Part shown: piece after piece, positions 6,001 through 15,000 of the stretch
Numbering within the stretch: the stretch's first letter is position 1
Layout: each line of letters starts with the position of its first letter
Source of the DNA: Escherichia coli
Lineage (GTDB): Bacteria > Pseudomonadota > Gammaproteobacteria > Enterobacterales > Enterobacteriaceae
Length of the DNA stretch: 64,000 bases
Strand: one strand, 5' to 3'
Assembly (NCBI RefSeq): GCF_045037415.1
Contig: NZ_CP173440.1
Program-made: the position numbers

Positions 6001-9000
6001 GGAATCAATAAAGCCCTGAGCGGCTCGCAGGGTCAGCCGGAATACGCGTTTAATCACCAGGATGGTTGTGATGGCAAGATCTGAATAGCGCTGAGGTCGT
6101 CCCCGCGATGCAGGCGTTGCTGACTCATACCAGGCCTGAATCGCCTCATCATCAAGCCAGAAAGTGATGGAGCCACGATTAATCAGGGCCTTGTTGTAGT
6201 TGCGCCAGTTGGTGATTTTGAACTTTTGCTTTGCCACGGAACTGCCAGTATAGTCAGGATAATGCGTGATCTGATCCTTCAACTCACCAAAATTTCGATT
6301 TATTCAACAAAGCCGTCTATTACTGGAAATCAATCATGGCGTGCCTGCACTACATCTGAATGTGTCGGGTGGGGATACGCTTCTCCACGTACATGCTGCA
6401 CAAGGTGGACTTGTCCTGACACCAGACAGTTCCGGGGTACTGTTTCAGCGTGCTGGATGCGACAGGTATGCTTACAGAGATCAGAACTCATTACTTGTGA
6501 AGGAACAGTAATATACTGCCCTCCATCAATCCAGAGTCTGGGGTTGTCGCATCAGATCTGACAGAACAAACAATCACGAAAAAGTTACTTTTTTCTCAGG
6601 AGGTGCCTGGACCCCTGCCCTTCATTTTGACGCGAGCAGGATGTCAGCACCTTACGTGCGGTTACTGTTATTCGCGTCCTGGTGGTATAGTGCAGCGGCT
6701 GGCAGAAGTAACCTACTATCCAACGGAATAAGATCACGATGAACGTCATTCAGCCCCGCATGCTCTCTGTATTTGATTTTGACGGTACGTTAACGCGGCA
6801 TGATAGCTTTATCCCTTTTCTGCGGTTTGCCTTTGGCAATCGGGCGTTTTCGCGACGTATCGTCAGCATGGCTCTACCCACGTTACGCTGTATGCGTAAG
6901 CAGATGACGCGTGATGAGCTTAAAGAAACGCTCATTACAACTTTTCTTACTGGTGTTGAGGAAAAGTGGGTGTCTTCTAAAGCAGAGGAATTCTGTCAGC
7001 TCTACTGGCATCGCCTCATGCGCCCGGCAGGTTTGATTGCTGTGGCGAATGAAGTCACTTCCGGCGCGATCGTCACCTTATGTTCTGCCTCGCCGGAAAT
7101 TGTACTCAGACCCTTTGCCGAAAAACTTAGGATCAAACTGATTGGTACACAATTAGAGACAAAAGACGGCATTCTGACCGGCAGAATCAGTGGTCATAAT
7201 TGCAGGTGCTCACAGAAAATTGTCCGGCTTGAAAAAGAATATGGACCTCTGACTGACTATCATCTTCGAGCATGGGGTGATACGCGGGGAGATTATGAAC
7301 TCCTTTCCGCAGCGACTGAGCCTCACTGGCGTCACTTCCATCAAGGTTTCCGTCGTAAGCTAATCATCAGATAAAAATTGCCCTTTATCGTTATGTAATT
7401 TCTTCTTTACATAAAAGTAACATATATTCTACATTTAACCACTGTAACTGGTGAAAAAAAGAGTGCATCCTGGTAAATCGGTAGCTCGGACTATTAGGTA
7501 TGCTTCAACCTGTTACCATTGGAATACCTACTTTCAGCCCGCTTTTCCGAGCGGGTTTTTTTCATCCCTGCCGATGTGTTCCTGGGTCTAAATTACTGGG
7601 TGAAATTGGGTTTCAGCGATCACATCTGCGTATAGCCCTGTTTAGCTCTGCGTACTTTGAAAAGGTGTCGTCATGGCAGCAGGCCTATCGCCCCTTACCG
7701 GGGCGATGAGTCAGATAATGCCTTCCTTTTTTGCCAGTCCAAGCCAGTCTTTGAACTCTTCGAGAAGTTTTTCATACAACTCTTCGTCCTTAATGTGGGC
7801 AAAATTATCGATCGCAAAAAAGTTGCTGTTGTCTACGCGACGGTCGCTAAAGGTGTCCAGCCTCTCCAGAATCCCATAATTTGATCCGCCCAGTCCCACG
7901 AACTTCCAGAAGACAGGATAGTTGGCTGAGCGGCGGATGGCCTCTTTAATTTCTCGTGTTTTGCAGATCCCGCCATCTGTAATGCACACGACAAAAACGG
8001 GTAAGGTGCTTTCCTTGAAATAATCGATAACCTCATTCATGACTGGCGGCTCATTGTTCGTCCCGCCAAGGCCGGGAAGGATTTCCCAGGCCGATCGTTT
8101 ACCCGTGTTCTGAATGGCAGCAATGTATCCGTCAAGATTGTCCAGTGTGACGTCAGGATATTTCTTGTGACGCTCAGCAAAGCCCCATACATCCATCGTG
8201 CCGTCATCGTCGAACTGGACAGACAGGACAGCTATACGGTCAAGAACGGCCTGTACATGTCCTTTTTTAAACTGGCCGGTCATAGAGCCTGAGGCATCGA
8301 GAACAAAAGCGACTCGTGCTTCAACGGTATCCAGTTTGTGTTTTGCCAGTGAAATACTGGCTTTCTTAGCCAGGCTGATAAGCGCAGGCGCTTTACCTTC
8401 GAGTTTCTTTTCAAGGCTGATCCGGGCTGGTTGCGGTACAACTTCTGCTGCAGGTTCCACGTCCACACCATAGCTGACTGCCAGTGGCTCAAGCCCGCCA
8501 TTAAATCCCTGCCCAAGCGCCCTGAGCTTCCAGTTGCCCTGGTATCGGTAAACTTCCCCCATAATTACAGCCTTTTCTGTGCGGCCATTGAGATCGACAA
8601 AAAAGGTGGCCTGACTTTCAGCAGAAAGTTTCAGTTGCGCGAGGCCGCTTATCGTATCACTGCCATCTATCACCATAGTGATTGCAATCTTCTGAATCGT
8701 ATCCGGGATCTGCTCAAGCGCAAAATGAACGACTGCGTGCTGGTGACCGGGGTTGAGTTTCACACTGCCACCGGCAGCACTGAGATTGTTGTAAAAGATA
8801 AAATCGGCATCGCCTGTCACTTTTCCCTCAGCATTCAGCATAAACAGGCAAGTCTCAGGGGGACTGTGAAATCCAGGACTGGGGGGATAATCAAGCCGGA
8901 GAGTCAGTGTAGCTGTGTGAAGCGGAATGTTCTGCCCTGATTGTAATTGCATTTAGGCTCCTTGTTGCCGGGTAAAGGGATCTCTCAGCGGGTAGAAAAA

Positions 9001-12000: not shown

Positions 12001-15000
12001 TGTTATCCCCTTCAGTCAGACGCGTTTCAATCGGTGGTTGCTCCGGAACATGTAATGTCACCACGCCATCGGTTTTGTCCCAGCTGGGCACGCCCTGATA
12101 GATAAAGGCATAAATCAGTACCTGGCGAATTTCTTTCCATTCGCGGCCATTGATGTGTAGCCATTCCCCATCCAGAGCCTCGCCGGTACGATCATCACCC
12201 TGCAGTTGAACATATGGCTCAGAGTGATAGTTACCAAAAGCATTACCGAGTGCCTGAACAACTGACTTATAGCCATCTGCGAGTTCAACGAATGCGCCAA
12301 GATCCAGGTCTATCGCTTTGTTCGAACCAAACATACCGCCCAGTAACCCGCCTGAACCCGAGCCACGATGCCAGTTCAGATTGATGCGGATTTCACCAAA
12401 ATTGTCTTTTTTGGCAAGGCTGATGGCAGGCTTCTCTTTGGTCAGAGAAACTTTACTCAGGCTAACTTTAGGCGGAGCCGGAGGCGCTGGTGGCGGAGTG
12501 ACTGGAGCTGGATCATCCGCGACGTTGACGCCATAGTACTCAGCGAGAGGTTTCAGGCCACCATTGAAGCCCTGGGCGATAAAACGAAATTTCCAGTCAC
12601 CATTCCTGCGATAGATTTCACCGAGGATCAGAGCAGCTTCCTGACGGCCGTTCAGTTCTACCTGACCACTGATCAGCGAGGTATTGCCACTTTCAATTTG
12701 TATGGACAGATGATTCAGGGAGGAAACGGTATGACTGCCGTCACAGGTAACGGTGAAGGCGACTTTCTGCACGTCGGGCTTGAGGCGGGACAGATCAACG
12801 GTGAAAACGCTATTGGTCCCTTCAGTACTGAAGCTAATGGAACCATCTTCATTACGGGGTTGCCCGTAAAAGACCATATCGCTGTCACCCCGAACTTTCC
12901 CGTCAGCGAATAATCTAAACGCCGAGGCATCAACAGGACCACCAGCAATGACTCTAACGCGGAGTTCCTGAGCAGGTACGGGGGCATTGCCCCCCGGTGT
13001 CAGATTCATGCTTTTACCACCGTACTGACGATATCGAATTGCATATCGTCGATTGTGCGGCCACCGCTTGCTTTACCGTGGGCGGTAAAGTCCCAGTGGC
13101 CGTTGTTGCGCCTCAGTGAAGCGATAATGATGCCGGTATGTGGGCCTTGTTCTGTCAGCTGATAGCGGGCAAGTTCCTTATTGGTCTGATCCACGACGCG
13201 GCAGAAGGCGTTATCCACGTCGTTGAAGGACTGTCCACGGAAGCTGTTCACAGTAAAAGCGAGGTATTCGACATTTGCCGGCAATTTTAAGAGGTTGACG
13301 TGAATGATTTCATCATCGCCATCCCCCTCACCCGTCAGGTTATCGCCGGAGTGGACGACAGAACCACAGCTGGATTTCAGTTTACGAAACCAGATGGTGT
13401 CAATTTTATTACCTGCGGCATCCAGAAGAACGCAACCTGCATCCAGGTCTATGGAATCATTGCCACCAAAAATGCTGCCAAATAATCCCTTTTTCTTAAC
13501 AGGATCCCAACCCAGTCCGAACTGAAGCTGGCTGAGAGCAGTGGATTGTTTGCTGAGTGATACTGTCTGGTTTTTACTTAAAGAAACCATATTCATTCCT
13601 TAAAAGGTATTGACCGGGTTTTTATAAAATTCATTTTCAAACAGAGTGCATCTAAATCATATCATGACAAAGTTCACCCGCAAGGTAAAAACTGGTGGGT
13701 TTCTGGAATTTACGTTTAATTACATTGGGTGGGTAGGTGATGGTTTGATATATGTTATTGTTATTAAGTGGTTTTGTGGTCTAACCGGAAAATCAAAAAC
13801 AGCGAGTGATTATCATATTATGATTGACATGGCGCAGGTCGGTTCTTAGACTCATGTATTACAAAAATCTCATCCCCTTTTCAGGCGACAATTATAAAAA
13901 ATGAAAAAGAAAATTTGGTTTATGGAAGGGCTATCTTCCCAGCGAGACATTGTCCTTGGAGTGAAATCATTTGCGGAAAAGGAAAATCAGGATATTGAAA
14001 TCTTTTCTTCTCATCGCAACGAGAGGAAAGAGATCTTGTCTGTTTCCGATTTTTCAATGATCGAACCTAACAACGAAGAAGAACGTCTTTCTTTTATTCA
14101 TTCCATTACTGACGCTCATGGTATTAATGCGATACATACTGGTCGCAACTGTAAATGGTTTGAAAGCCACCGGGAAAACATTCAACGTTCTGGTGTACAC
14201 CTGACTACCGGGTCAACGGGTACTCACTGGTTTGAATTAGCCGATGAAAAAGTTACTTTTTCCGAGTTTATGGAAAAAAATGGACTTCCGGTTGTCCCGT
14301 CGGTTCGGGTAAAAAATGTAGACGAGCTTCGTACTCTGCTGAATCATCCCCCTTTCCCTTCTGATTGCCTCTGCATTAAACCTGTTACAGGCATTTATGG
14401 CATGGGATTCTGGCGTTTTGATGACAATGTTTCCCCGGTAGCTTTTCTCAACAATCCTGATAGCCGTGTTATCCACCCATCACAATACCTGGCTGCTCAT
14501 GCCCGTATGGACTGCTTTACTCCACAAGTACTGATGCCCTATTTACCCGGACCAGAATACTCTGTGGATATGGTGGTAAGTCAAGGCACGGTCCTGGCCG
14601 CTATCGGGCGGCGTAAAGAAGGTGTGCTTCAGTATCTGGAAAATGAAGGGGAAGCGATTGAACTTGCCATCAACTGCGCCCGCCTAATGAACGCAGACGG
14701 CATGGTCAATGTACAGACTCGCCATAATGCCGAAGGCAAACCACTATTGCTGGAAATTAACATGCGGCCATCAGGTGGTATCGGTTATACGCAGCACAGT
14801 GGCGTGAATCTTCCGGGTCTGTATGCCTTCCATACACTTGGGCTGATGGATGATGATCAGGTCAGGCAGTCAGCGAAAACTGATTTTTCACCTGCAGTCG
14901 TCCGCTCTGTCACTGATGTCATACTCTATCCGGCATCATTGACCAACAGAATTTATTAATGGAGACAGATATGTCAGCAATTGATGGTAATTTCGGTTAT

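Follow-up and report, generated by a model that had tools for sequence, protein, structure and literature searches.

A terminator-like hairpin between terE and terF in a terZABCDEF cluster on an Escherichia coli contig

Background

The ter locus is tied to gut fitness and infection in Klebsiella pneumoniae, and deletion of terC in the K. pneumoniae ter operon leads to tellurite sensitivity (PMC8115787, PMC12054061). The label "terZABCDEF operon" masks a conserved terminator past terE, and the terF gene is optional and often decaying. Such an array is present in the window analyzed here, a stretch of 64,000 nucleotides from Escherichia coli contig NZ_CP173440.1, and it raises the question of whether terF is transcribed together with the genes before it. 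The original prediction was that a Rho-independent terminator after terE makes terF a separate transcription unit. The terminator, the optional terF, and the constant HAD neighbor bear on the choice of deletion and complementation, on polar effects, and on the interpretation of qRT-PCR differences.

Gene content of the ter region

The terZABCDEF array is, as judged from its sequence, a K. pneumoniae plasmid cluster that was already known, because the ter region (6500-14000 of the window) shares 100% DNA identity with many sequenced K. pneumoniae IncFIB/IncHI1B plasmids. Seven same-strand genes, all intact, were found on the minus strand in the order Z-A-B-C-D-E-F using ORFs and tblastn synteny across 29 Enterobacterales loci; ORFs and Pfam domains agree with the earlier description of a complete canonical set. 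The genes and associated sites are listed below.

13006-13596, minus strand: terZ, TerD-domain protein (Pfam TerD, 1.6e-44)
11858-13009, minus strand: terA (Pfam TerD; annotated terA)
11380-11835, minus strand: terB, ATG start, 151 aa (Pfam TerB, 5.9e-23; AMRFinder identity 100%)
10316-11356, minus strand: terC, integral membrane protein (Pfam TerC, 1.8e-42; AMRFinder identity 99.1%)
9699-10277, minus strand: terD (Pfam TerD, 6.6e-88; AMRFinder identity 98.96%)
9037-9612, minus strand: terE, stop codon 9039-9037 (Pfam TerD, 5.6e-87; AMRFinder identity 98.95%)
8963-8958, minus strand: terF ribosome-binding site AAGGAG (sequence)
7711-8952, minus strand: terF, N-terminal TerD and C-terminal vWA-TerF-like domains (Pfam PF10138, 2.4e-70; PF02342, 3.1e-27)
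6739-7374, plus strand: HAD-IB family hydrolase gene, convergent with terF (Pfam HAD; NCBIfam TIGR01490)

TerD domains are present in TerZ, TerA, TerD, TerE, and the N-terminus of TerF. All ter Pfam scores were far above the gathering cut-offs, and comparison of terB-terE with reference ter genes gave AMRFinder identities of 98.9-100%. The 4-nt overlap that had been noticed between terZ and terA is the ATGA at 13006-13009. The true start of terZ is most likely the ATG at 13590 (MVSLSK...) and not the one at 13596; the RefSeq annotation places it at 13590, two codons downstream, and an AAGGA ribosome-binding site suits this position.

The assignment of the gene that faces terF as a HAD-IB hydrolase held up, with a TIGR01490 score of 110.3 bits (cut-off 98.3), a DxDGT motif (FDFDGTLT), and a convergent gap of 336 nt to terF. 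A convergent HAD homolog adjoins ter in 14 of the 29 Enterobacterales loci, with or without terF, and in Proteus, Pectobacterium, Rouxiella, and Cedecea it directly faces terE across a hairpin. Conservation of the HAD gene beside terZABCDEF in K. pneumoniae was noted earlier (PMC8115787). Its distribution marks it as a conserved operon neighbor in many genera, not an isolated curiosity, and as a steadier neighbor than terF.

Structure of the terE-terF hairpin

The hairpins found between and beside these genes are as follows.

9652-9670, minus strand: GC hairpin in the terD-terE spacer, without a T tail, not terminator-like (d-score -20)
9021-8996, minus strand: intrinsic-terminator-like hairpin with T6, 9-bp stem, and 5-nt loop (sequence, fold, d-score, positional conservation)
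7688-7706, minus strand: GC hairpin just past the terF stop, without a T tail (d-score -27)
7536-7564, plus strand: terminator-like hairpin with T7 downstream of the HAD gene (scan; d-score +21)

On the minus strand, the terE-terF hairpin is composed of AAACCCCGG (9021-9013), the loop CCTGT (9012-9008), and CCGGGGTTT (9007-8999), with the T6 run located at 9001-8996; six G-C pairs and three A-T pairs make up the stem. The hairpin starts 16 nt past the terE stop, and its T run stops 43 nt short of the terF start codon (ATG, 8952). The GC hairpin and T6 run that had been proposed at this site, now with an exact span of 8996-9021, have the anatomy of an intrinsic terminator that is conserved in many species: a GC-rich stem-loop, an immediate T run, an intergenic location just past a stop codon, and a conserved position. 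The 41-nt hairpin segment had a predicted folding energy of -14.5 kcal/mol (z = -2.5), which was matched by 1 of 200 shuffled sequences. Folding of the entire 84-nt spacer did not reach significance (z = -0.95), and the 41-nt segment alone stands out. The d-score of +24 is close to that of the HAD-gene terminator and below those of the IncHI2 (+58) and Enterobacter asburiae (+50) counterparts.

Terminator prediction software, which had been suggested as a check, returned a mixed result. The built-in scan listed the hairpin on the plus strand only; the minus-strand call was missed because the stem was extended through the first three T, which left too few T in the tail. A custom scan with trimmed stems recovered the hairpin on the minus strand with the tail TTTTTTCT. 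The plus-strand listing, considered as evidence against a minus-strand terminator, was rejected as an artifact of maximal stem extension. A REP-like element or transposon end was also considered and rejected, given the conservation of the T run, the invariable position of the hairpin immediately past the stop, and its replacement by unrelated hairpins in other genera. No riboswitch or known RNA was detected in an Rfam search of 6000-14500 at permissive thresholds, in which the lone match was asX2 at chance level (23.7 bits; gathering score 70). No report of a terE-terF terminator or of ter transcript mapping was found in the literature searched.

Conservation of the hairpin and distribution of terF

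Matches to the terminator consensus are not enriched per se in the window (14, versus 9.6 +/- 3.0 in shuffles), and the case against chance therefore rests on comparison across species. Using a strict detector, a hairpin followed by a T run was found at most 120 nt past terE in 19 of 29 Enterobacterales species. The same detector gave 3/27 for the terD-terE spacers and 0/27 for the terC-terD spacers that served as controls, and 0.02 matches per 120 nt of coding sequence. The post-terE hairpin and T run occur with or without terF, and the stem sequences are frequently unrelated between species. Comparison of 11 lineages showed that the CCCGG/CCGGG core of the hairpin is kept, with compensatory changes in one pair. 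IncU plasmids with diverged flanks carry the same hairpin past terE; in the IncHI2 plasmids and on the E. coli O157 island, the hairpin differs in its loop and is followed by T8. Two Moraxella loci, in which TerF is only 35% identical, have a hairpin and T run between a TerD paralog and terF. The Halothiobacillus and Deinococcus loci contain terF-like genes without a terminator in front, and the arrangement is therefore not universal.

terF was found in about 11 of the 29 Enterobacterales species. The protein is conserved over its full length at 52-85% identity across genera, and the gene is frameshifted in K. variicola pKPN1481-1, truncated in E. coli O157:H7 F8798, and interrupted by an IS in K. 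michiganensis pJNQH491-2. An extra upstream gene accompanies terF behind the terminator in Escherichia sp. ESNIH1 and Shewanella glacialipiscicola; the extra membrane protein before terF in loci L007 and L043 had no match to a Pfam family. These comparisons suggest that terF is most likely an optional add-on behind the terminator of a core operon. The terminator is kept with or without terF and terF is patchy; the terminator therefore likely marks the end of a core terZABCDE.

Promoter prediction and expression of terF

No sigma-70-like -35/-10 pair (at least 7 of 12 matches) was found on the minus strand within 9200-8953, and a promoter for an independent terF unit was thus not found by sigma-70 consensus in the 43 nt available. 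The scan used the sigma-70 consensus only, and a weak promoter, or one read by a different sigma factor, could coincide with the hairpin or be embedded in the 3' end of terE. One weak sigma-70-like site with 8 of 12 matches is located inside terE at 9231-9205. Published qRT-PCR from a K. pneumoniae strain that carries the operon recorded induction of the complete terZABCDEF set by Zn(II), of terZBCDE by Te(IV), and of terBCDE by Mn(II); terF was listed for neither of the two weaker inducers (PMC12054061).

The qRT-PCR evidence is coarse. terA, a mid-operon gene, is likewise unreported as Te(IV)-induced (PMC12054061), and differences between genes in these data may therefore be noise.

Since a sigma-70-like promoter was not found and terF is co-induced by Zn(II), reduced read-through is the most likely route to terF. 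The induction pattern, in which terF responds to Zn(II) and is unlisted for Te(IV) and Mn(II), is easier to reconcile with transcription that starts at the terZ promoter and passes the terminator at a reduced level than with a promoter dedicated to terF. The explanation that we prefer, and regard as reasonably probable, is that a Rho-independent terminator closes the core terZABCDE operon and that an optional terF, with no evident promoter, is fed by read-through. The hairpin and T6 run (9021-8996) would act as this terminator where the core operon ends, and behind it lies terF, for which no separate promoter is evident in this plasmid lineage. The fraction of polymerases passing the terminator would transcribe terF, and the gene's own strong ribosome-binding site would then direct translation. 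The predicted outcome is that TerF is less abundant than TerZ-TerE, yet co-regulated with them. The terminator probably marks where the core operon formerly ended, with weak expression of terF as a consequence. A more specialized version appears rather improbable, namely that the terminator works as an attenuator, tuned and possibly responsive to conditions, that holds TerF sub-stoichiometric to the TerD-family proteins, so that terF rises only at very strong induction such as that by Zn(II). If this were true, selection on the TerF:TerD/E ratio would account for the recurrence of hairpins of unrelated sequence in Enterobacterales and Moraxellaceae.

Alternative explanations

The original prediction was retained with respect to the terminator; with respect to a separate unit it was supported in part at most, and not in the form stated. 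Full independence of terF, with complete termination after terE and a separate promoter driving terF, is unlikely. It would suit the modularity of terF, which is present or absent irrespective of terZ-E, and the extra gene that stands before terF behind the terminator in Escherichia sp. ESNIH1 and S. glacialipiscicola. The 428-nt spacer with a palindrome between terminator and terF in the IncHI2/O157 systems has room for a promoter and operator, and the omission of terF from the reported Te(IV)- and Mn(II)-induced genes could be read in the same way. In this window, however, the T run and the ATG are a mere 43 nt apart, the -35/-10 search of 9200-8953 was negative at the threshold given above, and Zn(II) induces terF along with the other ter genes.

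It is distinctly less probable that the hairpin no longer usefully terminates and that terF is expressed near the full operon level. The hairpin would then be a relic of the terminator that serves both terE and the convergent HAD gene where relatives have no terF, or chiefly a 3' stabilizer or processing site. The convergence of HAD and terE around a hairpin in Proteus, Pectobacterium, Rouxiella, and Cedecea points in this direction, as do the A-rich 5' flank, the plus-strand call, and a d-score lower than those of the IncHI2 and E. asburiae hairpins. The T6 run is nevertheless intact, the d-score is clearly positive, and the gene sets reported for the weaker inducers omit terF. Good T-run hairpins precede terF in most lineages with short spacers, and in Moraxella with unrelated sequences, which argues for continued selection.

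It is highly improbable that terF in this lineage is decaying and effectively silent: its pseudogene, truncated, or IS-interrupted state in three other records, and transposon insertions cited in PMC12054061 as leaving the tested phenotypes unaffected, are set against an intact ORF with a strong ribosome-binding site, a region that is 100% identical in many plasmids, full-length conservation across genera, and a Zn(II)-inducible terF mRNA.

Comparison with known systems

The virulence and hybrid plasmids of K. pneumoniae (pK2044-type, IncFIB/IncHI1B) have an identical gene order and the same downstream HAD gene, and the divergent 14-gene terXYW/biosynthetic cluster of the pK2044-type plasmids is also the same as that found here. 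Their ter region shows no difference, the terminator simply being unannotated in those records. The IncHI2 plasmids (R478 type) and the E. coli O157/O104 islands contain the same seven genes, with TerE 89% and TerF 68% identical. A related CCCCGG/CCGGGG hairpin with T8 is located right past terE in the IncHI2/O157 systems, where the terE-terF spacer is 428 nt long, compared with 84 nt here. Unlike the present locus, the IncHI2, O157, and O104 systems are without a HAD gene behind terF.

Chromosomal terZABCDE loci (Proteus, Morganella, Pectobacterium, Yersinia similis, and others) share the core genes and their order and have a hairpin past terE, mostly with a T run, on which a HAD gene often converges. 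They are without terF, and the terminator past terE is thus the actual end of the operon. Toptchieva et al. 2003 reportedly described the ter operon of P. mirabilis as one inducible transcript.

Terminators within operons are known to reduce distal expression, as in the case of the terminator before dnaG (rpsU-dnaG-rpoD) and the attenuator before rpoB (rplKAJL-rpoBC). By analogy, the terE-terF junction would be an intrinsic terminator between co-oriented genes with no intervening promoter, and read-through would be needed to express the distal gene. For rpsU-dnaG-rpoD and rplKAJL-rpoBC there are measurements of partial termination, whereas for terE-terF it is inferred only. The terE-terF terminator is a refinement of what is known, an ordinary feature and not a discovery.

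Gene content of the ter array

Seven intact ORFs, terZ, terA, terB, terC, terD, terE, and terF, were located on the minus strand. Pfam searches identified, with very strong scores, TerD domains in TerZ, TerA, TerD, TerE, and the TerF N-terminus, the TerB and TerC families, and a vWA-TerF-like domain at the TerF C-terminus, so that the array was complete and intact as originally predicted, including the 4-nt overlap (ATGA) between terZ and terA. The start of terZ is most likely the ATG at 13590 rather than 13596, where the longest ORF begins, because an AAGGA ribosome-binding site fits the former and the RefSeq annotation uses it.

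Features of the ter locus
6739-7374, plus strand: ORF of the HAD-IB family hydrolase (TIGR01490, 110 bits; cut-off 98.3)
7536-7564: terminator of the HAD gene
7688-7706, minus strand: GC hairpin without a T tail, after the terF stop
7711-13596, minus strand: terZ to terF
9001-8996, minus strand: T6 run of the terE-terF hairpin
9652-9670, minus strand: GC hairpin without a T tail, terD-terE spacer
13006-13009: terZ/terA overlap

The terE-terF hairpin

The 84-nt terE-terF spacer reads, on the minus strand, TGA-N16-AAACCCCGG-CCTGT-CCGGGGTTT-TTT, and the T run is followed by 43 nt, with an AAGGAG ribosome-binding site, before the terF ATG (8952). The 41-nt hairpin segment had a folding energy of -14.5 kcal/mol (z = -2.5); the whole spacer was unexceptional (z = -0.95). 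The hairpin was not called on the minus strand by the built-in terminator scan, only because that scan prolongs the stem into the T run, and was detected by a scan allowing trimmed stems. The d'Aubenton-Carafa discriminant (d-score), computed with modern energy parameters, was positive for this hairpin (+24) and for the HAD gene terminator (+21), and negative for the tail-less GC hairpins of the terD-terE spacer (-20) and of the sequence immediately past terF (-27). Judged by its sequence, the terE-terF hairpin qualifies as an intrinsic terminator, and the terminator proposed at this site by the original prediction was supported by the trimmed-stem scan, the d-score, and the cross-species comparison. 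No obvious intrinsic terminator was present 3' of terF. The two tail-less hairpins (each about -14 kcal/mol) might be RNA-stability or processing elements. The literature searched contained no description of a terE-terF terminator and no mapped ter transcripts; older primary papers lay outside this search, and an earlier mention is possible.

Conservation of the terminator after terE

Consensus terminator matches in this 10-kb stretch were not enriched relative to shuffled sequences, and therefore the real test of chance was comparative. A TerE scan with one genome per species yielded 79 loci, in which gene content was typed by tblastn. A strict detector, which demanded a perfect stem of 5 bp or more, 4 or more G-C pairs, and a T-rich tail, gave a match no more than 120 nt past the terE stop in 19 of the 29 Enterobacterales species carrying terZABC(D)E, and several of the remaining loci had imperfect versions; as controls, terD-terE spacers gave 3/27, terC-terD spacers 0/27, and same-strand coding sequence 0.02 sites per 120 nt. 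Stem sequences were often unrelated between genera, and among the 11 lineages with a common CCCGG/CCGGG core, compensatory changes occurred at one pair. IncU plasmids carried the identical hairpin within diverged flanks; in IncHI2 plasmids, as in the E. coli O157 island, terE was directly followed by ACCCCGG-CAATG-CCGGGGT plus T8. A hairpin and T-run also preceded terF in two Moraxella loci (TerF 35% identical), and none was found ahead of terF in the Halothiobacillus and Deinococcus loci. The terminator occurred with or without terF behind it.

Expression of terF

The reading we favor, and consider probable, is that the terminator would close the core terZABCDE operon and that polymerases starting at the terZ promoter and partly reading through it would supply terF. 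In K. pneumoniae P1927, published qRT-PCR identified Zn(II) as the strongest inducer, with the whole of terZABCDEF up; the induced genes listed were terZBCDE for Te(IV) and terBCDE for Mn(II), terF being in neither list (PMC12054061). This pattern is consistent with diminished read-through of transcription from the terZ promoter; as evidence it is coarse, since terA is likewise missing from the Te(IV)-induced list.

The original prediction was sustained as to a terminator after terE, and its further proposal of terF as a separate transcription unit appears unlikely: no sigma-70-like promoter was found on the minus strand at 9200-8953, and the 43 nt between the T run and the terF ATG are too few for a standard promoter and leader. 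Such a unit gains plausibility in the IncHI2/O157 lineage, in which the terE-terF spacer is 428 nt, as against 84 nt in the window, and contains a near-perfect palindrome, ATATGGTGTCACACCATAT, about 100 nt upstream of terF (IncHI2 locus L002, about 2775-2795; at the equivalent position with one substitution in the O157 locus L085). The palindrome is a candidate operator for a lineage-specific terF promoter. Less likely still, the hairpin could be a relic or stabilizer causing little termination, and terF is very improbably silent and decaying.

terF and the HAD gene as ter neighbors

By tblastn typing, terF was present in about 11 of the 29 Enterobacterales species and absent from Proteus, Morganella, Pectobacterium, Yersinia similis, and others. 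It was frameshifted in K. variicola pKPN1481-1 (L086), truncated in E. coli O157:H7 F8798 (L085, 2363-2668), and split by an ISKpn37 insertion in K. michiganensis pJNQH491-2 (L003, 245-2739). In all three records terB to terE were intact, which fits a dispensable terF, and the terE hairpin was unchanged in L086 and L003, the two for which the sequence was read.

The HAD gene was convergent on terF across a 336-nt gap, as predicted. In 14/29 Enterobacterales loci a convergent HAD gene lay no farther than about 4 kb downstream of terE, and in several that lack terF it came directly after terE; it is therefore a more constant ter neighbor than terF, which is thus a variable insert between the core-operon terminator and the HAD gene. 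For K. pneumoniae, conservation of the HAD gene beside the ter operon has been published (PMC8115787).

In Escherichia sp. ESNIH1 (L007, 4635-5294) and Shewanella glacialipiscicola (L043, about 4652-5305), a conserved extra gene abuts terF on the terE terminator side. The product, predicted to be a membrane protein of about 215 aa, has REKGV.F.IHG.FGSR...KQKRDECL.ALQART as its C-terminal motif; no Pfam family was matched, and the protein may be a partner of terF.

Source plasmid and relation to known ter loci

The edge of the ter island is marked by an IS5-type DDE transposase ORF (Pfam DDE_Tnp_1_5 and DDE_Tnp_1) between an alpha/beta-hydrolase gene and the HAD gene; the plasmid gene table does not include this ORF, which may be a pseudogene. 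Downstream of the ter locus is a resistance region containing blaNDM-1, ble, aph(3')-VI, and qnrS1, and the window is therefore from a hybrid plasmid with virulence and resistance genes.

Features surrounding the ter locus
4144-5007: alpha/beta-hydrolase gene
5413-6282, minus strand: IS5-type transposase ORF
30823-31642, 42445-43264, 44284-45103, and 59710-60529: IS26 copies
30823-43264: IS26-bounded segment of about 12.4 kb with mph(A)-mrx-mphR, chrA, sul1, qacEdelta1, dfrA5, and intI1
44284-57168: resistance region
about 47492-48304, minus strand: blaNDM-1

Positions 6500-14000 matched 2404 plasmid records, and many K. pneumoniae plasmids, roughly 310-420 kb in size, share them at 100% identity. 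In a typed example, phvKpST395_NDM1_1657 (IncFIB/IncHI1B/IncR), the same genes are annotated as a ter operon, flanked upstream by a divergent cluster (ATP-grasp, phosphoribosyltransferase, and terXYW-type genes) and downstream by the HAD gene; the IS26-bounded segment is inverted relative to this otherwise collinear plasmid. Given this identity, the array itself is already known: the locus had every defining feature that could be tested and belongs to the established terZABCDEF family, and the hairpin is an ordinary, well-supported predicted terminator within that operon.
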